Source: Patescibacteria group bacterium (GTDB lineage Archaea; Nanobdellota; Nanobdellia; Pacearchaeales; GW2011-AR1). From it: 64,000 nt of DNA. Shown here one piece after another: positions 8,241 through 19,138 of this stretch. Every line of letters begins with the position of its first letter. Positions within the stretch are counted from its first letter, which is position 1. Both the position numbers and the translations under genes were made by a program. The stretch is from the NCBI GenBank assembly GCA_019428815.1, contig JAHYJW010000001.1, positions 47,119 to 111,118 on the forward strand. The letters are read 5' to 3'. The notes beneath the pieces were generated by a model. It saw only the letters and a list, made by a program, of their open reading frames with translations. It was not told the DNA's origin and ran no database searches.

Positions 8241-9116
8241 CTACAGAAAGATTATCCCCATATATTCTAATTTTTTGAATTCTATCTTCATCATTTTTTT
8301 TAGTTCATTAATTTTCATATTATCGTAAATATCCTTAGTATTAGTTTCAGGTCTTATGTCATAAAAAGAAACATACCCCGGGCTAACAACCCCCCATTTT
8401 GAGTTACCTATAATCCCGGTATTCCTATATACATTCAACAAACTTGTAAAATCTGTAAATGAGGGAATAGCAGGGAAATACCACGTTTTTCCGCGAATTT
8501 CTACTAAATCTTCATAAACTTTTACTAAATCAGATAAACTCACCTTAGAGTCTGCACCCTCATAATCCTCCCGGGAAATTTTATCTGTTTGGGTTACTTG
8601 TTTTGGATCAACATTCTTTTTTAAACTCGGATCTGGGTGAGTATGAAATAATAAAAATGGGCCATAAAATTCCTTTAATCTTACAAACCTAGAGTTGACC
8701 AATGAACATGATGAAATTAAAGCATCTGAATCCTTATGTTGAATTATTTTTTCTCCTATCCCTACCTCAACCCATTTGTTTTCTTTAGGAAAAAAAGCGT
8801 AACTTTCTTCTAAGGCACTCGTTTTTGCAATTTCTTGTAAATCACTAATCCCTCCTTTAAATGATCTATATGAAGTAAGGATTTTTGTTTCATCTGTATT
8901 TAGTTCTAATTTACTTGTGATTTGTATACTACTGCTAGGAAATAAACTATAAATTGGATCTTTTGGTTTAGGACTAGAAGAGTTAATTCCTAAGCTTATC
9001 AACGATGTAAAGACTAAGGGGGATAATTTCTTTATTAATCCTGAAGTTTTTTTCATTACTTTGTAGTGATTATTATCCTTATAAACTTTTTTATTTTTTA
9101 AAAATATTTTTGTCAT
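8241..9116 (-). CDS. Hypothetical secreted protein (downstream of CRISPR trailer)
   Basis: Internal start MKKTSGLIKKLSPLVFTSLISLG gives a signal peptide. No recognised domain. Confidence 0.4.
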   Translation of the reverse strand: MTKIFLKNKKVYKDNNHYKVMKKTSGLIKKLSPLVFTSLISLGINSSSPKPKDPIYSLFPSSSIQITSKLELNTDETKILTSYRSFKGGISDLQEIAKTSALEESYAFFPKENKWVEVGIGEKIIQHKDSDALISSCSLVNSRFVRLKEFYGPFLLFHTHPDPSLKKNVDPKQVTQTDKISREDYEGADSKVSLSDLVKVYEDLVEIRGKTWYFPAIPSFTDFTSLLNVYRNTGIIGNSKWGVVSPGYVSFYDIRPETNTKDIYDNMKINELKKMMKIEFKKLEYMGIIFL

Positions 9117-9323: not shown

Positions 9324-11057
9324 ATCTACAATAGTAGAAATTAAAGCATGCTTCTAGACCTAACAAATGCGCAAAGAGGAAGTAAAATATCTACAATAGT
9401 AGAAATTAAAGCATGCTTCTAGACTTCTCTGTTATCTAATTCTTGTTGTATATCTACAATAGTAGAAATTAAAGCATGCTTCTAGACATTTATACCTTAC
9501 AATTAAAAACCTTGAAAATCTACAATAGTAGAAATTAAAGCATGCTTCTAGACTTAAAATCTGAATACCTTGATAAAGAAGGACAAACAATCTACAATAG
9601 TAGAAATTAAAGCATGCTTCTAGACGACTATAAGAAAATTAAATCATAGGAGGCATCTACAATAGTAGAAATTAAAGCATGCTTCTAGACACGATAATGT
9701 CATCATTACCTGTTAAGGAATCTACAATAGTAGAAATTAAAGCATGCTTCTAGACACACCAACACCACCAAACACCACCACTTATCTACAATAGTAGAAA
9801 TTAAAGCATGCTTCTAGACTACAACCTTAAATAATATTTTTAAATTTTATTTATCTACAATAGTAGAAATTAAAGCATGCTTCTAGACACCTTAATGGAC
9901 GATGCCATCGAATGCGTATCTACAATAGTAGAAATTAAAGCATGCTTCTAGACAGGAATACTAATCCAGCTCCAACGATTAATCTACAATAGTAGAAATT
10001 AAAGCATGCTTCTAGACACTGGGGGGGTTTCCATTACATAAACCTATCTACAATAGTAGAAATTAAAGCATGCTTCTAGACCGAAAAAAGAGGTTTTCTT
10101 TTGAGTGGTGAATCTACAATAGTAGAAATTAAAGCATGCTTCTAGACAGTTATTCTCTTATTCGCTGGGGTGATGTATCTACAATAGTAGAAATTAAAGC
10201 ATGCTTCTAGACACTGCTCGAGGTGTTAGGTGTAAGTGGATCTACAATAGTAGAAATTAAAGCATGCTTCTAGACGCCCCTGAAAATACTCTCCAAACTG
10301 ATGTATCTACAATAGTAGAAATTAAAGCATGCTTCTAGACTTGGGCCAATCTTGCTTGCTCATATTCTGTATCTACAATAGTAGAAATTAAAGCATGCTT
10401 CTAGACTAACCCCTGAAATGATTGAATATCAGAAAGGATCTACAATAGTAGAAATTAAAGCATGCTTCTAGACATAATCCGTCTTCACAGGAATTATTAA
10501 ATCTACAATAGTAGAAATTAAAGCATGCTTCTAGACACCACAGATTCAACAGCTTACGGATTGCTATCTACAATAGTAGAAATTAAAGCATGCTTCTAGA
10601 CTTATAAACTTATAATATTATAATATTATAATATCTACAATAGTAGAAATTAAAGCATGCTTCTAGACAAGTTTATTGGGTGTCCAGTCCTAACTCTATC
10701 TACAATAGTAGAAATTAAAGCATGCTTCTAGACTCCAGATTTGAAGCCTGGGCTTTCAACTTATCTACAATAGTAGAAATTAAAGCATGCTTCTAGACAA
10801 GTTGGCTTTTCCATTATATCCCAATTGGATCTACAATAGTAGAAATTAAAGCATGCTTCTAGACACCTTAATGGACGATGCAATCGAATGTGTATCTACA
10901 ATAGTAGAAATTAAAGCATGCTTCTAGACATTTTTCCATACGCTTTTATATATCCCGATCTACAATAGTAGAAATTAAAGCATGCTTCTAGACTTTTTCC
11001 CGTATGCCTTTATATACCCTGATCTACAATAGTAGAAATTAAAGCATGCTTCTAGAC
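9324..11057 (-). CRISPR. Type V-A CRISPR array: 27 identical 36-bp repeats, 26 spacers (27-36 bp)
   Basis: The repeat ATCTACAATAGTAGAAATTAAAGCATGCTTCTAGAC is counted 27 times with starts at 9324, 9389, 9452 ... 11022. In minus-strand sense it reads GTCTAGAAGCATGCTTTAATTTCTACTATTGTAGAT, the canonical Cas12a repeat with a 3-prime AAUUUCUACUAUUGUAGAU handle. Spacers 9/24 and 25/26 are near-duplicates. Confidence 0.95.
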
Positions 11058-11266
11058 AGTTGCGATTTGGAGTAGACTTTTTGTTTTGCTTTATCTCCTC
11101 TAACTTAAGTCATTTTAGACTTTTACCTCTAAAACTCATTTCCAGTATATATAATTATTCTTGTATTCTTAAATATTCCTAAATTGGCATTTAGAGACGC
11201 TAAGAACCAAAAATTCTTAGATATTGGCCATACTTACATAAAATATTAAGACTTGGGTTTGCAGAT
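11058..11266 (-). promoter_or_regulatory. Putative CRISPR leader with AT-rich TATA-like elements; hairpin downstream of cas2
   Basis: About 209 bp AT-rich region between the cas2 stop and the first (leader-proximal) repeat. Contains TATATATAATTAT (about 11148-11160) and an inverted repeat CTAAGAA-ccaaaaa-TTCTTAG at 11200-11220. Confidence 0.45.
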
Positions 11267-11539
11267 TTAATACATAAGAAGGTCAGTTTCTTCATTTTTA
11301 GCGTAACCAAACCTTAAAATTTGATTCTCTGCTGTTATTTTAAATATTAAAACACTGTCCCCCTGATTAAATCGTTTCTCAAACCGATTCTTAATCTCTT
11401 CCTGCACCAAATCTAGGATCCTTTTGCTGTTCTTTATTTCATACACCGAGTATTGAAGTCTTCTCCCATAATTTAAAATAAACTTGGAAAACTCAGTTCT
11501 TAGATGGTCTTCTTGGATATCATACGTTAAAATTATCAT
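11267..11539 (-). CDS. cas2: CRISPR-associated endoribonuclease Cas2
   Basis: 90 aa. N-terminus MIILTYDIQEDHLRTEFSKFILNYGRRLQYSVYE matches the Cas2 beta1-alpha1 pattern. Overlaps cas1 by 4 bp. Consistent with the cas12a-cas4-cas1-cas2 operon order. Confidence 0.75.
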   Translation of the reverse strand: MIILTYDIQEDHLRTEFSKFILNYGRRLQYSVYEIKNSKRILDLVQEEIKNRFEKRFNQGDSVLIFKITAENQILRFGYAKNEETDLLMY

Positions 11540-12510
11540 CTATTTACCTCTAGGTCAAAGACAGGAAAACTGTCAGTTTCTTTTCCCTTTATGAACGATC
11601 TGTAATAAGATTGAATATATAAAAATATTTTTTCTTTATATAACAGGATCTCTTTTAAAAACAATTTAGAGTATTTTTTATTAAACTCTCTCTTTACATA
11701 AAATTGTCCATTTTTAAAATAAAAATCATCTTTATTTATCTGTTTAAGGTTAAAACTTTTCTTTATGCGGCGGTCAATAATGCACCTAAAAGGTTCCACT
11801 AAATCACAGACTAATGATTTTCTTTGAAAGAACAGCTTATGGTAAAAGCCACAATAGGTGTCAAAGCCGTAAAGTTCCAAATTTGCCTCTATGAAATTAA
11901 ACAAGTAATAATATCCAATATCTAAGAGCAAATTAAAGCTATCGCTCTTACATCTTGGCTTTCGGCCACCAAAATCTAAATTCTTAAAATAGGTTTTAAA
12001 AAATAATTTTGAGGCTGTTCCTTCCATCCCTAACAAATCCTGGCTGCTTTGAGCATTGTCGATTTGTTTAAAAATCTCTTTTGTTTTTGATATATTGTTC
12101 TTTTCCTTAGTGGTTTTGTATCGTAATGAGTCCATTAAACTGATCTGATTTTTAACTTTATTATGGACTATGTGCTTAGCAATTTTTAGATCATTGCTAT
12201 TAGTGTATTGTTTTTTCCTCAAAAAAAAATTTCCTTTATTATCTGGGAGGATGGAAAAATAAGGTTTAAGATTATAATTAAGAAACACTATAGGAACTGC
12301 ATATTTTTTTGCATTCTTTATCAGAACGGAAGTAATTGAGAATTCTCCTAAAATAAAAACCATAAAAATTTTTGTGAACGGATGCTGGAGAATGATCTTG
12401 TTATTTTCATCAACAAGAATAAGGTTTGAATTTTTAAGCCTCAGTTTTTTAGAGTTATTACTTTCAATGAAAAGCATTTGCTTGGCTATAAAATCAGGTC
12501 TACTTAACAT
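11536..12510 (-). CDS. cas1: CRISPR-associated integrase Cas1
   Basis: 324 aa. Position between cas4 and cas2. Conserved acidic/His-containing C-terminal half (LLDIGYYYLFNFIEANLELYGFDTYCGFYHK). Confidence 0.8.
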   Translation of the reverse strand: MLSRPDFIAKQMLFIESNNSKKLRLKNSNLILVDENNKIILQHPFTKIFMVFILGEFSITSVLIKNAKKYAVPIVFLNYNLKPYFSILPDNKGNFFLRKKQYTNSNDLKIAKHIVHNKVKNQISLMDSLRYKTTKEKNNISKTKEIFKQIDNAQSSQDLLGMEGTASKLFFKTYFKNLDFGGRKPRCKSDSFNLLLDIGYYYLFNFIEANLELYGFDTYCGFYHKLFFQRKSLVCDLVEPFRCIIDRRIKKSFNLKQINKDDFYFKNGQFYVKREFNKKYSKLFLKEILLYKEKIFLYIQSYYRSFIKGKETDSFPVFDLEVNR

Positions 12511-12513
12511 GTT

Positions 12514-13077
12514 TTAATCTCCTTTATCTTTATAATAATCGCACAATTCTTTATAGATACACATCTCGCATTTGTGGGGATTTTGAGTGAAGTTTTTGTC
12601 TTCTAATGAAAATAGTTTAATTTTTGTTATAATTTCTTTCAATTTATGTTTTTCATTGTTTCCAGGCAATCCAACATCATGGATTTTGTTGTCTGAAAGC
12701 GAATGAAAACGTATTTTTTTGACAACATAACCCATCTCTACCAAACAAAAATATTGCGCATAAATTTGTAGGTAATACCCCTCATAAAGCTTTTTTATAT
12801 TATTTTTTCTTTCTGTAAGAATTCCCCTTTCAACATCAAAAAGATCAATTTTTCCGCACACACTTAACTCTTCACTGTATATGTCAATTCCTTCAAGAAT
12901 CGCCTTTTTTGTTGAATATTTTTGTCTATCTACGGTTTTGTGTGCGTGTTTTCCCTTTGTCTGATAAATGGTATGGTAAAGCGTCTCATCAAAAGATGAA
13001 TATAAATTATGAAAGTATATGCTTCTTGGGCAGAAGATAAAGTCATTAAGGTTTGAGATAATTATATTTTGTTCCAT
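12514..13077 (-). CDS. cas4: CRISPR-associated Cas4 (RecB-like nuclease with Fe-S cluster)
   Basis: N-terminal Cys (FCPRSIYF) plus C-terminal CEMCIYKELC cluster. RecB-like motifs (IDLFD...ERK, QIYAQYF). Confidence 0.8.
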   Translation of the reverse strand: MEQNIIISNLNDFIFCPRSIYFHNLYSSFDETLYHTIYQTKGKHAHKTVDRQKYSTKKAILEGIDIYSEELSVCGKIDLFDVERGILTERKNNIKKLYEGYYLQIYAQYFCLVEMGYVVKKIRFHSLSDNKIHDVGLPGNNEKHKLKEIITKIKLFSLEDKNFTQNPHKCEMCIYKELCDYYKDKGD

Positions 13078-16000
13078 TGTCCTATACCCCCTTGTACAAA
13101 TTTAAGCCATTCTTTATTGCTGATGGACAGTTTAAGACTTTTCCAATTTTCTTTGTGGGAACTGATTTGTTTAAGTACCCATAAACCTTTTTTAGCAATA
13201 TGGTATGCCCCATTGGCATCGGCGTCTTGAGGTAGCTCTTTACCGGCGTTTCTGCTATCGTAAAATTCTCCTTTTTTGTTCATCACAGGCGAAATGAGAT
13301 AATCAACCTCACTTTGTATCTTGCTATTTCGCATTTGTACAGTATACTTGAAAAGATCAAGAAGCCTTTCAAAGAAGATCTTCTCTGTTTGTGAAACGAT
13401 CTGTTTTTTCAAATCAGTTTTATAATCCACCTTGTACGATTGAAATAGATTCTTAAACTCTTCAGAAAGAACTATCTCTTTGTTGTCCCACTGATTGTTT
13501 TTTTCTGGATTTCTGAATGTTTTGATACGTTCACCATATGTGCAGAGGGTCCAATCCTGTCTTGTACCACTTGCTTTGGAGTTGAACGTAGAATATTCTT
13601 TAACTTCGAATTCAAAATAGTTTTTAGTAGTGTTGTAACGGATGTCTTCAAAATTATCAAAAAAAGACCTTGCTTTTTCGAGATTTTCATATTTGATTTT
13701 GAATAGATTGACAAATCCAGTGGTGGGATCTATCTTGCTAGTATACCATGAGGGAACATAGAACAAAAAGCCGCTTTGCTTTCCTAGTTTTTGGAAGCTT
13801 ACGAATTTGTTGGTTAGTTGTAAAGCGTTATATAATCCACCTATTTCATTTTCGGCTTTGTCTTTGAATACTAAATAATTGAGCTTGTCTATCAATTTTT
13901 TCTCTAGTTTTTGATAGATTTGCTTTTCAACCTTGAAACGACCTCTTTTGAAGCCAAAATTCAGATCTTCCATGACGACAATAGCATTGTGTTTTACCAT
14001 CATCTGATTAATTTTATGTATTACCTGTGAGATATACCCCTCTTTTAGTTCTTTGATTGCTTCTATTGTTTCCCAGTTTTCCCTTGCTTTGGCTCTTTCA
14101 TCTTCTCTTTTGTCAAGTAAATCCCTGTATTTGGTCCGGTAAGTATTTCCTTTATGCTCATTGATGATATCGTTAAAAGAATACTGTTCTTCGATATTGC
14201 CTTTTTGGTCAATCAGCGTTAAATAGATCAAATTTCTCTCCCCTCTGTCTAAACCAATAATCTTGACTTTAGGGTTATTCTTGAGGTATTCGAGAACAGA
14301 AGCATTGATAGATCCGTTACCCTTTGCCTTAAAGTTAAGTGTTATTGGAACGTGGAACTGGAATTTGTCCACAGTATAACGTTTGTTTTTTATAATATTA
14401 TATTCAAAAATACTTTCCTTCTTAGTGGCACTTGGATTTTTATTTTTAATAGACTCTTTTGCTTTGTGAACAACTTTATTCTCATTGGAGATGGAGCTTC
14501 TCCGATAGAACATCTCAGCTTGACCATTAAGTTTATACACCTTATTTTTCAGATTCTCCGGTTTAAATAAAGCTTTCCAGTACATTGTATGCAAGTTGGG
14601 ATTGCCTTTACTGTATTTAGAAAAGTCTTTATTCCAAATTTTAAACAGAAATAACTTCCCTTCGTCTACGAGTCGATTGATGTAGCTTTCGGGAACATTT
14701 TGAAAAGTGATTTTATACCCCTGATGTTCTACTTCTCTATAAAATTCACTCAAGTCTTCGTATGAGGAAGTATCTGAAAATTGAAATCCAAAATGTCTCC
14801 AATCTTCATGCTTTGCGATAGATTTTTTGAAAAAATCAATCAAATTGTGGCAATCCTCAACGTTAAATTTGTCACCTTTTTTATGAGTTTCTGCTTTATA
14901 TTTCTTTTTTAATTCTTCAGGCGGTGCAAATTCTTTGATTCTGCTATTTGAGAAAAATACTTTTGGCAACATCTTATTTGCACCAGGTAGTAGTTTGTAT
15001 ACCATTTTTTCATAAACCAATTCACCTGGGCTTGCATCAGGGATATTTTTGAAAATCTTGTTGTGTTTTTTGTCCATTACTCCAAGATAATACAACCCCT
15101 TTTTGTGAAATAATACTGAAGTATTATCAACCTCTTTATTCAAATCCCAGCCAGCCAACAGTGTACTATTCTCAAAATTTAGTTTGAACTTCTCTGTACA
15201 ATACGGCTTTTGTGTAGCATAATTTCGTACCTTATTGTATAGGGGAATTAAAAGCCGCAATTGGTCATACCATATCTGAAACTGACCATAGAACATCTCA
15301 TCCTTCTCTAAGGGGCTATCGTTTGGTAATGATAGGGGTTTCACAAAATGCAGTAGTTCCATCATGCTATCTAAAAAAGTCTTGATATTATCAATGACTT
15401 TTTTATCCTGATTCAGTTTTTTATCCTTTGGATACTCTATGTTTAAGATGTCTTTGATAGAGAGGTACTTTGTTTCAATATTGGTAATCAAATCAAATCC
15501 TTTGTTGCCGTCTTTTTTCTTTTCAACCTTAAAATGAGTATGAAAATAATTGGTAACAGGTTTCGTGTCTTCTTGTAAATCCTTTAGTATTTCAACTTCA
15601 CTTTTGTATTTGAGTAAGGCACTTTCAATTTCAGCAATAGAAAAATGAGACTGTTTCAGTTGCTTTTCTTTAGCAATCTTTTGTTTTATGGATAACCCTC
15701 TTTTGCCAATTTTAGGCGTTTTCAAAAAGGTAAATTCCAATGCAGATTTTATGATATTCCAATCACCAAAAATGTTTTTTGAAATGTCACTAAGTGTCCG
15801 GTCATTACTGATATAAACTTTTTCAAGATTATAGTCTTTGAGGCTTGCAAGTAGCTCTTTGATTTTTTTCAGCACATTCTCAGTCTCGTCCTTATCGTTG
15901 GGATGAAAGTCAACCAGGTTATTCTGGTAATATTCACCTATTGCGTTTAGGACTTTCTGACTAGCTGTTTTCTCCGGATCATCTTTAAACGATTCTGGTA

Positions 16001-16922
16001 AGAATGAAATGCTCTCCCTATCACTCAGGATTTGCTTATAGAGTTTTTTGAGTTTTGGTATTCTATCTTTCTTGTCCTTTTTTTGGTTGTACAAATTGAT
16101 ATATTCATTCAATCCCTGAATTTTCTTTTGATCTTCTTCAATAGTTCTCCCACTAATAATTAAATTGTAAACAACTATCTGTTTTTGAGTGAGCACCCTA
16201 TTGTAATAATCCAACTTAAAGGCTTCATCAATGTTTTTAATGTTAAGATATTCCCCTATTTCTTTGTATAGAACAACACACTTCCCATATAACTCCGGTA
16301 TTGATTTAATCTTTTCAAAAATTTTGATGTTATCCATGAACTTTGGTAAATTTTCGTGTATCAATCGATAGGAAATCGCGGTGGCCTGTTTTTTTTCGGT
16401 GTACATATTTTTTCGGTTCTCGTGGAAGCCTCTGAAATATGTTGTGAATGTTTTGAATTTATCATCGAAGTAAATGTCTTTCTTATTATGCCTGCTTATC
16501 CAATCTGGTAGGAGCTCAGTTATTAATTCCTTTTTGTCAATTTTTGAGAAACTTTCCTCTGCTTTACCAGTCTTAAAACCTTCGGCGATCTCTTTTCTAA
16601 GGTAAGCTTGTACCTTCTCAAATTCTTTCTTGAAAACATCTTCCTTTTTACGTTCTGGAGATACATTGTATAGTTCTGCAAATGCTTTTAATTTTGTTAA
16701 TTTTACTTGTGACATAGTTTCTTCTATGAAGTCCCTATGTAAACTATCAATGGTTTTTTTCATCTTCTTATAGCTTTCCGCTTTTTTTTCATCTTGGCTT
16801 ATTAATCCCTTTTTTTCGATATTTTCAAGAGTCTTCCCAACTGGCTTCAATTCAAATCTTAAGGTTTTTGATAAGCTGTATTTATTTGTAAATTCGCTTT
16901 GTATTGACTCTGTTTTTGTCAT
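13062..16922 (-). CDS. cas12a: Cas12a (Cpf1) type V-A effector nuclease
   Basis: N-terminal FTNKYSLSKTLRFELKPVGKTLENI (WED-I). RuvC-I IGLDRGERNLIYLTLID, RuvC-II VVMEDLNFGFKRGR, RuvC-III DADANGAYHIAKKGLW. 1286 aa. Confidence 0.95.
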   Translation of the reverse strand: MTKTESIQSEFTNKYSLSKTLRFELKPVGKTLENIEKKGLISQDEKKAESYKKMKKTIDSLHRDFIEETMSQVKLTKLKAFAELYNVSPERKKEDVFKKEFEKVQAYLRKEIAEGFKTGKAEESFSKIDKKELITELLPDWISRHNKKDIYFDDKFKTFTTYFRGFHENRKNMYTEKKQATAISYRLIHENLPKFMDNIKIFEKIKSIPELYGKCVVLYKEIGEYLNIKNIDEAFKLDYYNRVLTQKQIVVYNLIISGRTIEEDQKKIQGLNEYINLYNQKKDKKDRIPKLKKLYKQILSDRESISFLPESFKDDPEKTASQKVLNAIGEYYQNNLVDFHPNDKDETENVLKKIKELLASLKDYNLEKVYISNDRTLSDISKNIFGDWNIIKSALEFTFLKTPKIGKRGLSIKQKIAKEKQLKQSHFSIAEIESALLKYKSEVEILKDLQEDTKPVTNYFHTHFKVEKKKDGNKGFDLITNIETKYLSIKDILNIEYPKDKKLNQDKKVIDNIKTFLDSMMELLHFVKPLSLPNDSPLEKDEMFYGQFQIWYDQLRLLIPLYNKVRNYATQKPYCTEKFKLNFENSTLLAGWDLNKEVDNTSVLFHKKGLYYLGVMDKKHNKIFKNIPDASPGELVYEKMVYKLLPGANKMLPKVFFSNSRIKEFAPPEELKKKYKAETHKKGDKFNVEDCHNLIDFFKKSIAKHEDWRHFGFQFSDTSSYEDLSEFYREVEHQGYKITFQNVPESYINRLVDEGKLFLFKIWNKDFSKYSKGNPNLHTMYWKALFKPENLKNKVYKLNGQAEMFYRRSSISNENKVVHKAKESIKNKNPSATKKESIFEYNIIKNKRYTVDKFQFHVPITLNFKAKGNGSINASVLEYLKNNPKVKIIGLDRGERNLIYLTLIDQKGNIEEQYSFNDIINEHKGNTYRTKYRDLLDKREDERAKARENWETIEAIKELKEGYISQVIHKINQMMVKHNAIVVMEDLNFGFKRGRFKVEKQIYQKLEKKLIDKLNYLVFKDKAENEIGGLYNALQLTNKFVSFQKLGKQSGFLFYVPSWYTSKIDPTTGFVNLFKIKYENLEKARSFFDNFEDIRYNTTKNYFEFEVKEYSTFNSKASGTRQDWTLCTYGERIKTFRNPEKNNQWDNKEIVLSEEFKNLFQSYKVDYKTDLKKQIVSQTEKIFFERLLDLFKYTVQMRNSKIQSEVDYLISPVMNKKGEFYDSRNAGKELPQDADANGAYHIAKKGLWVLKQISSHKENWKSLKLSISNKEWLKFVQGGIGQWNKI

Positions 16923-17178: not shown

Positions 17179-18297
17179 TTGATAAATTTTTATATACTTC
17201 AAAAAGTTTTAGTTTTTATGATAAGAACAGATTTTAAGAGAGCTAATTTAAGGGAAATTCTTGAATTACAAGGAATTGATTGTCCTAGAAGATTAGACAA
17301 ATCTTTTTTTTCTTCTCTTATAGAAGAGGGAAAATTGCTTTTTGTTGGAGACTCTTATGAAAATGCGGTAAAATCAATTAATAATTTAAAAGAAGGTTCT
17401 GTTGCATTATTCCCCAATAAATTTAGATTTGATAAAGAAAAAGCAGATCGTGAGGTAAAATCCTTAGAAGGATTAGTTAAAATAGACTCTGCTCCTGTTT
17501 TAAGGAAAGTTTCTGGACAAGACTCTGTTCCTCATAAGCTCACTAAATCTTTCCTAGAAGAATACCAAATTCTTCCAGAGGCATTAATCCAAGAAGCAGT
17601 TAATCGAAGCAAGATTGAAAATCCTCCTAGGGGCATTTATTGGATTGGAAGAGATAATCACGTTAGGGCATTTACTTGGTTAAGGGCTATTTCTGGGATC
17701 GAAATGCAAATAATGAATCAACTTGGTAAGTTTTTTGGCGAAGTTAAAGATAAGAAACCTTATGGTAGAAATATTAGAGTTGGGGTTGGATCTAGAGAAA
17801 AACCAAATCTGGAATATGAATTTAGTTTATTTAGACTACCTATCTTTTCTTATGGTGATAAAAGAAAATTCTCAGAGTGGACTGAAATAAGCCATAATTC
17901 TAATGATCCAGATGCGAGTTATAGGGGCGGAGAACATGATAAGAGAGTTTTTCCTTTTTATTTTTGGTCTGCTCCTTCTATTTTTGCATATTATAATTCA
18001 ATGTCTTTTGTTAGTAATATGGGAGGTAATATCCCGGATGATCGTCGTTTAAAGTTTAGGGTTAATCCCTTTCCAATTCCAAAAGATAAGAGAGTAGTTG
18101 ATTTTATCGATAGATTAAGATTTCAAAGTTTGATTATAGACTCACCCCAAGAAGATGCCAAAAAATTAAAACTTTCTATATTGAGTAATACTGAGATAGA
18201 AGAGCTTATCGGAACAAAATTAATTTTAGAAGGTTATGATAACTTTTTTTATCATTTAGGGAAAAAGAATTTGGATTATCTCTATAATCTTAAATAA
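17179..18297 (+). CDS. Hypothetical protein (372 aa), no recognised domain
   Basis: Long ORF with typical codon usage. No motifs I can assign. Probable real start is the internal MIRTDFKR. Confidence 0.4.
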   Translation: MINFYILQKVLVFMIRTDFKRANLREILELQGIDCPRRLDKSFFSSLIEEGKLLFVGDSYENAVKSINNLKEGSVALFPNKFRFDKEKADREVKSLEGLVKIDSAPVLRKVSGQDSVPHKLTKSFLEEYQILPEALIQEAVNRSKIENPPRGIYWIGRDNHVRAFTWLRAISGIEMQIMNQLGKFFGEVKDKKPYGRNIRVGVGSREKPNLEYEFSLFRLPIFSYGDKRKFSEWTEISHNSNDPDASYRGGEHDKRVFPFYFWSAPSIFAYYNSMSFVSNMGGNIPDDRRLKFRVNPFPIPKDKRVVDFIDRLRFQSLIIDSPQEDAKKLKLSILSNTEIEELIGTKLILEGYDNFFYHLGKKNLDYLYNLK

Positions 18298-18379: not shown

Positions 18380-19138
18380 ATGAAAAAGAAAACAAATAAA
18401 ATTAATTCAAAAAAACATTTTGTTTTTGATAAGAAAATCTCAAATAGGCTTTCTTTTACACTTTTGTTTTTAATCGTTTTAGTTATGATTTCTTTTTTAG
18501 TTTATGCAACTGTTCTACCTGGTTCAACACCAAATCCAGGACACAATATCCAGAATATCGGAGCTCCGGTAGGGTGCGGGGTAGGAGAATATTTACAGTT
18601 ACAAAATGATGGTACGGGAGGAGCCTTAGATCCAAATAGATGGTTTTGGGGATGTAGTTCCTCTCAGAATGCATCTTTGGGGTATCTCCCCCCTCCAAGT
18701 GGGAGTATTTTAAATGGGGCAGTTTTTTGCAAAGAGGGATTAACTCAGATTGATCAGAATAGTTTTACCTGCGATAGACCTGTAGTCTCTTATACTTACT
18801 ATTATTATCCTCGTCTTTATTCTATAGAAAATCAAAGAGTTGTAGCTTTTTGGAGCGATCCCCAAGATTCTGCAGAAGCAGATCTTATTTGTAATGCTTT
18901 AGAAGGAAGTGTTAGAGACCGAGACGTAGACATCACTTATGAACCTGGTCCTCAAGGAGGAACCGGTGCTCATATAACTCGTGGTATATCCTCTTCCTTT
19001 TACCTTTTTTGGGGTCCATATCAGGATGCCCCTGAAGGAAATCCTATTCGTTATATAACAAGTGTTACTTGTAAGAGACTTTTGACTGAGACAGGTCAAT
19101 GGGTAATTAGTAATGCAGACTATGAAAATTATTATTAG
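18380..19138 (+). CDS. Hypothetical membrane-anchored/secreted Cys-containing protein
   Basis: Lys-rich N-terminus followed by a hydrophobic segment LSFTLLFLIVLVMISFLVYA. Extracytoplasmic region contains 8 Cys. Confidence 0.4.
   Translation: MKKKTNKINSKKHFVFDKKISNRLSFTLLFLIVLVMISFLVYATVLPGSTPNPGHNIQNIGAPVGCGVGEYLQLQNDGTGGALDPNRWFWGCSSSQNASLGYLPPPSGSILNGAVFCKEGLTQIDQNSFTCDRPVVSYTYYYYPRLYSIENQRVVAFWSDPQDSAEADLICNALEGSVRDRDVDITYEPGPQGGTGAHITRGISSSFYLFWGPYQDAPEGNPIRYITSVTCKRLLTETGQWVISNADYENYY

Follow-up and report, generated by a model that had tools for sequence, protein, structure and literature searches.

Look-alike spacer pairs in a type V-A (Cas12a) CRISPR array are probable traces of repeated acquisition from related coding targets

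Results

The Type V-A Locus and the Orientation of Its Array

The window, i.e., the whole stretch of DNA that was analyzed, comprises 64,000 nucleotides. It includes a CRISPR array and an adjoining operon of four cas genes, all of which are on the minus strand. The features are as follows (coordinates of the window):

9324..11057, minus strand, type V-A CRISPR array (36-nt repeat in 27 identical copies, 26 spacers)
9889..9917, minus strand, spacer 9, the older member of the pair 9/24, 18th from the leader
10865..10893, minus strand, spacer 24, the younger member of the pair 9/24, third from the leader
10930..10957, minus strand, spacer 25, second from the leader, encoding xGYIKAYGK in the crRNA sense
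10994..11021, minus strand, spacer 26, the newest spacer, encoding the same peptide as spacer 25
11058..11266, minus strand, leader, an AT-rich gap that separates cas2 from the first repeat
11267..11539, minus strand, cas2, 90 aa (TIGR01573, 39 bits, above the cut-off)
11536..12510, minus strand, cas1 of type V, 324 aa (TIGR04329, 382 bits, above the cut-off)
12514..13077, minus strand, cas4 of type V, 187 aa (TIGR04328, 226 bits, above the cut-off, profile positions 1-176 of 178)
13062..16922, minus strand, cas12a/cpf1, 1286 aa (TIGR04330, 1534 bits with a cut-off of 300, profile positions 2-1285 of 1288)

A Cas12a effector, adjoining cas4, cas1 and cas2 genes, and a 36-nt repeat with a hairpin handle at its 3′-end were all found. 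As judged from this gene content and from the repeat, the locus is a canonical type V-A (Cas12a) system. The host genome has a size of 645 kb in 9 contigs, a GC content of 30% and a completeness of 85%, and the contig that carries the array is 181.6 kb long. A second array with the same repeat was not found in the 645-kb genome. Three open reading frames flank the locus at 8241-9116 (minus strand, 291 aa), 17179-18297 (plus strand, 372 aa) and 18380-19138 (plus strand, 252 aa). None of the three had a match in Pfam, and those at 8241-9116 and 17179-18297 also had none in NCBIfam.

The array is transcribed from the minus strand. Read on this strand, the repeat ends with the hairpin UCUAC-UAUU-GUAGA (5-bp stem, 4-nt loop) in the minimum-free-energy fold, and the hairpin is followed by a U. 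The fold energy of the repeat was no better than that of shuffled sequences (z = -0.41). A hairpin with a 5-bp stem and a 4-nt loop at the 3′-end of the repeat matches the consensus of the Cas12a crRNA handle. Because the cas operon (11267-16922) is on the minus strand, and because the repeat ends in the Cas12a handle on the same strand, the spacers 24-26 are adjacent to the leader. The high-coordinate end of the array is thus the leader side, where the three newest spacers (24-26) lie, and spacer 9 is an old one. A promoter scan of the leader revealed a single weak site on the minus strand (11172-11144, 9/12), which was no better than sites in shuffled sequences. The repeat at the trailer end (9324-9359) is also identical to all others, which is unusual among CRISPR arrays. 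The unbroken identity of the repeats through the trailer end suggests that the array is young or was recently homogenized.

The spacers have lengths of 27-36 nt, and the most common length is 29 nt (10 of 26 spacers). Their mean GC content is 0.359, whereas random 29-mers drawn from the host genome average 0.304 (P = 0.003), so that the foreign DNA that was sampled has on average a lower AT content than the DNA of the host. Three spacers are of low complexity, i.e., spacer 20 (10602-10632, TTATAA-type repeats, 3% GC), spacer 8 (9820-9852, a run of A and T, 9% GC) and spacer 7 (9756-9783, CA-rich with a CACCA-type repeat), and these three were behind most of the spurious database matches. In the crRNA orientation the first base after the repeat is an A in 14 of the 26 spacers, and five spacers start with ACA or ACG. 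This bias may reflect a preference of the adaptation complex or a preference at the position adjacent to the PAM.

Two Pairs of Spacers Are Similar Beyond Chance

An earlier note on this DNA had drawn attention to near-duplicate spacers, namely spacers 9 and 24 and spacers 25 and 26. Its coordinates and sequences for the four spacers were reproduced exactly, and the similarity of both pairs was found to be real: 27 of 29 positions agree in spacers 9 and 24, and 21 of 28 in spacers 25 and 26. The two members of each pair have equal lengths and align at offset 0 and on the same strand. The description of the four spacers as one old and three leader-proximal ones agrees with their position and with the orientation of the array, and hence all three newest spacers (24, 25 and 26) are members of look-alike pairs.

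With pair-specific shuffles, the observed identity was reached in 0 of 20000 cases at offset 0 and in 0 of 3000 cases when any offset and either strand were allowed, and this was true for each pair. Shuffles of the whole array were less decisive for the pair 25/26. A best pair with at least 21 matches was obtained in 9 of 200 such shuffles, driven by the spacers 8 and 20, which consist nearly purely of A and T. The gapped score of the pair 25/26 was 25, which is just under the 95th percentile for the top-ranked pair (26) and above that for the second-ranked pair (22). The similarity of spacers 25 and 26 is therefore held to be settled because of the pattern of their differences (see below) and not because of the whole-array shuffles. 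Taken together, the shuffles and the difference pattern ruled out a chance similarity of both pairs. No other pair of spacers in the array was above the shuffle null. The gapped likeness of spacers 23 and 25 (two 8-mers with a 9-nt gap, score 18) and that of spacers 11 and 23 (score 19) were both within it.

The Differences Within the Pairs Point to Coding Targets

Spacers 25 and 26 differ at the crRNA positions 2, 5, 14, 17, 20, 23, and 28. Six of these seven differences fall into one codon phase (plus-strand positions 6, 9, 12, 15, 24, and 27), and the probability that six or more of seven differences share a phase is 0.006. All six in-phase differences are transitions. They are silent in one frame on each strand, which reads (I/F)FPYAFIYP on the plus strand and GYIKAYGK on the minus strand, i.e., in the crRNA sense. 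The suggestion of the earlier note that the changes are at third codon positions and that the target is coding was thus borne out by the phase pattern. A periodic and silent pattern of change cannot be produced by drift within the array, and therefore spacers 25 and 26 were taken up separately from coding homologs. We infer that the two spacers represent independent acquisitions from diverged homologs, which would share about 75% identity at the DNA level and an identical protein sequence (GYIKAYGK) at this site.

Spacers 9 and 24 differ at crRNA position 3, which is part of the seed, and at position 12. Both changes are silent in frame 0 of the plus strand (TLMDDAIEC), while in frame 0 of the minus strand one is silent and the other replaces M by I. 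With two differences, a coding origin of this pair is suggestive and not conclusive.

The pairs had also been read as a signature of an arms race with escape mutants, and this reading is plausible for one of them. Seed mismatches were found to weaken Cas12a-mediated phage defense most, and in culture the majority of single mismatches allowed phages to escape (PMC10132644). With its mismatch at position 3, spacer 9 would therefore plausibly be ineffective against the variant that is matched by spacer 24. The term escape mutants is ill-suited to the pair 25/26. With seven changes over 28 nt, of which six are silent, these two spacers show the divergence of distinct homologs, which could be different phage lineages or paralogs, and not that of point escape mutants derived from each other.

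Searches for Protospacers

The host genome was considered as a possible source of the spacers. The 645-kb genome contained no full-length match to spacers 9, 24, 25, or 26 and no paralog with the encoded peptides, and thus self-targeting and a host paralog as source were rejected. Several large collections were scanned with transition-degenerate patterns for both pairs, and no match was found in the IMG/VR viral contigs, the JGI metagenomes, and the GTDB genome contigs. The two pairs also had no match with up to two mismatches in any of 400 genomes of the phylum.

In addition, the whole array was compared by blastn with GenBank phages and plasmids. Among the matches listed, only AT-rich or repeat-edge noise was present, and none was in the four spacers. 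A blastn search of the whole array against the 400 phylum genomes yielded related arrays, which served as a positive control for the search, and short AT-rich matches, none of them in spacers 9, 24, 25, or 26. The idea of shared protospacer loci, which underlies the earlier interpretation, fared differently at two levels. At the nucleotide level no such locus was found, with 0 matches in six collection scans, while at the peptide level a UvsX/RecA-like locus was found for spacers 25 and 26.

A UvsX/RecA-Like Recombinase Is a Candidate Target of Spacers 25 and 26

A 24-nt codon-degenerate pattern for GYIKAYGK matched five viral loci, whereas about one random match had been estimated. In four of these loci (L059, L060, L061, and L063) the peptide is in frame and at the same position of homologous open reading frames, and L059 and L063 share the same context. 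The fifth, L062, is an unrelated open reading frame, and therefore the 8-residue peptide is not unique. The peptide-bearing reading frames matched the Pfam family RecA (1e-18 and 5e-15) and phrog_97, "UvsX-like recombinase" (7e-48 and 2e-53). The site follows a conserved helix and immediately precedes the Walker B stretch (...LIVLDSLAML). The alternative reading on the plus strand, FPYAFIYP, had one match, which was outside any open reading frame.

The recombinase family is represented by 37 loci in IMG/VR and by 887 homologs at E <=1e-20 in a large protein database. Among the best 120 of the 887 homologs the consensus of the site is [GNSA]Y.K.[YF]GK. In the same 120 sequences the exact peptide GYIKAYGK is present five times, once as FFA|GYIKAYGK. 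The Ala codon of the latter is compatible with the first two bases of spacers 25 and 26 (CG and CA), and a TTT Phe codon ahead of this Ala would give a TTTG PAM in register.

Several observations were less favorable. The best DNA identity of a recombinase homolog to either spacer was only 22 of 28. TTTV in the required register was found in 0 of 29 homologs, in which the Phe codon is TTC or is replaced by an Ile or Val codon. The recombinase subfamily was found in 0 of 400 genomes of the phylum. Members of the family are often encoded on contigs of 310-390 kb, an odd fit for a host genome of 0.65 Mb. Profile tests ranked GYIKAYGK first, and they are circular, as the homologs had been retrieved via the same motif. 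On balance, it is fairly probable that the gene targeted by spacers 25 and 26 encodes a UvsX/RecA-like phage recombinase.

Searches for the Target of Spacers 9 and 24

For the other pair, 12 loci were obtained with a less stringent pattern of 20 nt (DDAIEC plus GT). They looked random, with 17-22 identities of 29, no PAM, and unrelated contexts, and were rejected. The control motif LMDDAI[DE] was found at 120 or more loci; the 80 loci examined belong to at least eight unrelated protein families, and none of the 80 had the full peptide TLMDDAIEC. The occurrence of the control motif in so many unrelated families shows that peptides of 7-8 residues are not unique and not diagnostic. A pattern search with the minus-frame peptide THS[MI]ASSIK gave 0 matches. 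It was also considered that spacers 9 and 24 are derived from the same recombinase gene as the other pair. This was rejected, as the profile score of 6.7 bits was reached by 153 of 634 control peptides, and the best identity in 149 proteins, 4 of 9 residues, was below the shuffled null.

Related Arrays of the Phylum

Of 300 further genomes sampled from the phylum, 8 encode Cas12a, and the repeat handle of this array was found in 0 of 30 members of the family. In twelve other type V-A arrays with altogether 211 spacers, a diverged pair and an exact duplicate of neighboring spacers were found once each, and no other pair had at least 20 matches. The diverged pair consists of spacers 12 and 17 of the genome G273 (L033, G273:C4). 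They match at 23 of 27 positions with a register shift of 1 nt at the PAM-proximal end, and they span a GGAGG...ATG stretch, seemingly a ribosome-binding site and the start of a gene. The duplicate is formed by spacers 36 and 37 of the genome G351 (L052, G351:C1), which are identical over 30 nt and represent an exact tandem duplication of a repeat-spacer unit. No spacer was shared among the 13 arrays that were compared. Two diverged pairs in 26 spacers are thus on the high side, yet the phenomenon is not confined to this array.

Exactly the same 36-nt repeat is present in arrays of two genomes of the phylum that belong to other families (L038, G089:C7:8000-27000, and L056, G103:C10). The cas4, cas1, and cas2 genes of G089 are 87-93% identical to their counterparts at 11267-16922 of the window, but over the C-terminal part the identity of its Cas12a is only about 32%. 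The Cas12a of G103 is 66% identical to that of the window. From these comparisons, the adaptation module and the repeat seem to have been exchanged separately from the effector.

Discussion

Origin of the Look-Alike Pairs

The explanation that we consider the probable one, with reasonably good confidence, is that the two pairs represent separate acquisitions from the same PAM-defined site in diverged foreign coding genes, that the gene targeted by spacers 25 and 26 probably encodes a UvsX/RecA-like protein, and that spacer 24 updates spacer 9. New spacers would be inserted by Cas4-Cas1-Cas2 at the leader end, i.e., the high-coordinate end of the array. The array is transcribed on the minus strand, and each crRNA would be used by Cas12a against PAM-flanked DNA. 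Each pair would thereby record two acquisitions at one PAM-defined site from diverged copies of a foreign protein-coding gene; the equal register and length of its members would arise because the processing of new spacers is anchored at the PAM. Spacers 25 and 26, which are consecutive and the newest, would stem from two homologs of the probable phage recombinase gene, and one or more Phe codons ahead of the site could supply the TTTV PAM. Since their mismatches at positions 2 and 5 fall in the seed, neither of the two crRNAs should cover the target of the other, so that both would be useful. Spacer 24 would have been taken from the same site as spacer 9, but from a variant that is silently changed at positions 3 and 12, and it would thus update a memory that this variant had probably escaped. 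Acquisition hot spots or a selection for conserved coding stretches would be the simplest causes for the re-use of a site.

An alternative is that a repeat-spacer unit was duplicated within the array and then accumulated point mutations, so that no second acquisition was involved. Exact duplicates do occur in such arrays, as is exemplified by the adjacent identical 30-nt spacers 36 and 37 of G351, and spacers 9 and 24 are of equal length and register and differ at two positions only, which taken alone is compatible with duplication and mutation. However, spacers 9 and 24 lie 15 units apart and have unrelated neighboring spacers, and both of their changes are silent in one frame. Furthermore, the 27 repeats (972 nt) are devoid of any substitution, whereas the spacers differ at 2 of 29 and 7 of 28 positions. 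In the pair 25/26 the differences are periodic (six of seven in one phase, P = 0.006) and silent, unlike drift in an array. Duplication plus mutation is thus excluded for spacers 25 and 26 and unlikely for spacers 9 and 24, and as an explanation of the feature as a whole it was judged to be very improbable. It could also be that the assembly is at fault, in that the identical repeats led to the joining of spacers from co-existing strains in a single array, for instance of spacers 25 and 26 as alternatives at the leader end, or of a strain version of spacer 9. The assembly is of the metagenome type (9 contigs, 85% complete), and identical repeats make the order of an array hard to resolve with short k-mers. 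Yet each member of the pairs is flanked by distinct, unrelated spacers, and the contig is long (181.6 kb). We regard such an artefact as improbable, and even if it were true, the variants would have been acquired independently of each other from diverged targets, albeit in different cells.

Separate acquisitions, as preferred here, could have been guided by interference, in that a partly matching old crRNA, such as that of spacer 9, steered adaptation to the same site in a "primed-like" manner. As judged from its sequence, spacer 24 would be a second spacer for the site of spacer 9. The 26 spacers include two same-register pairs, whereas a single diverged pair and a single exact duplicate were present in the 211 spacers of the 12 other type V-A arrays. 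According to a rough estimate, two such coincidences would rarely be obtained if the approximately 2000 TTTV sites of a 40-kb phage were sampled uniformly. However, known priming gives spacers near the primed site and not at it, and spacers 25 and 26, which differ at seven positions including the seed positions 2 and 5, would hardly be able to prime each other. Moreover, no evidence of primed adaptation was reported for a heterologous FnCas12a system (PMC9419969). Interference-linked re-acquisition therefore has a low probability in our opinion. A more general proposal would be that natural type V-A systems, upon contact with a diverged or escaped relative of an earlier target, return to exactly the same PAM-defined site, a site-directed "spacer updating". 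This seems rather unlikely at present; if it were true, the updating would be interference-linked or would be due to a very strong hot spot of Cas4-Cas1-Cas2.

Biological Meaning

The look-alike pairs are real, but as a sign of repeated contact with related invaders they are rather ordinary. They represent a well-documented kind of CRISPR record, and no new mechanism was shown. Two points are added here: each of the three newest spacers has a look-alike partner, and the probable target of one pair is a phage recombinase gene. A host with a tiny genome would thus keep an active and up-to-date Cas12a memory, and its recent acquisitions would have occurred repeatedly at the same conserved coding sites of related invaders. 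If the re-use of sites turned out to be systematic, it would bear on the feedback from interference to adaptation in Cas12a systems, for which the heterologous test found no indication (PMC9419969). The probable recombinase target would also be a handle for finding the phages of this host.

Comparison With Known Systems

The peptide encoded by spacers 25 and 26 was found at one fixed position of a known family, the UvsX-like recombinases of large phages (phrog_97). The nearest named relative is from the Ralstonia phage RsoM2USA, with an identity of 49.5% to L060, and its site reads AYIKDYGR. In UvsX of phage T2 the corresponding site reads LEAIERGEK.

Among characterized type V-A loci, that of Francisella novicida (PMC9419969) shares the order cas12a, cas4, cas1, cas2, and array, and it has a 36-nt repeat with a hairpin handle at the 3′-end and the same modal spacer length of 29 nt. 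Adaptation with the FnCas12a system was reported to involve a Cas4-dependent selection of TTTV and to yield spacers with a modal length of 29 nt (PMC9419969). In contrast to the native cas4 of F. novicida, which is reported there to be defective (PMC9419969), the cas4 gene of the locus described here is intact, as indicated by a full-length profile match. The two hosts also differ, with a genome of 0.65 Mb and 30% GC in the present case.

A similar combination of old and new spacers was described for the type I-C arrays of Legionella pneumophila that target the element LME-1. In these arrays an older spacer with PAM or seed mismatches is accompanied by a newer spacer for an overlapping site, which was read as escape followed by re-acquisition (PMC5071653). 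In that system priming was demonstrated and the target element is known (PMC5071653), while the present system is of type V-A and the register of the paired spacers is exactly the same and not overlapping. Lastly, as stated in a study on the Candidate Phyla Radiation, Cas12a occurs sporadically in these small-genome bacteria, as it does in the genomes sampled here, and the targets of its spacers were found on co-assembled phage scaffolds (PMC6509639).
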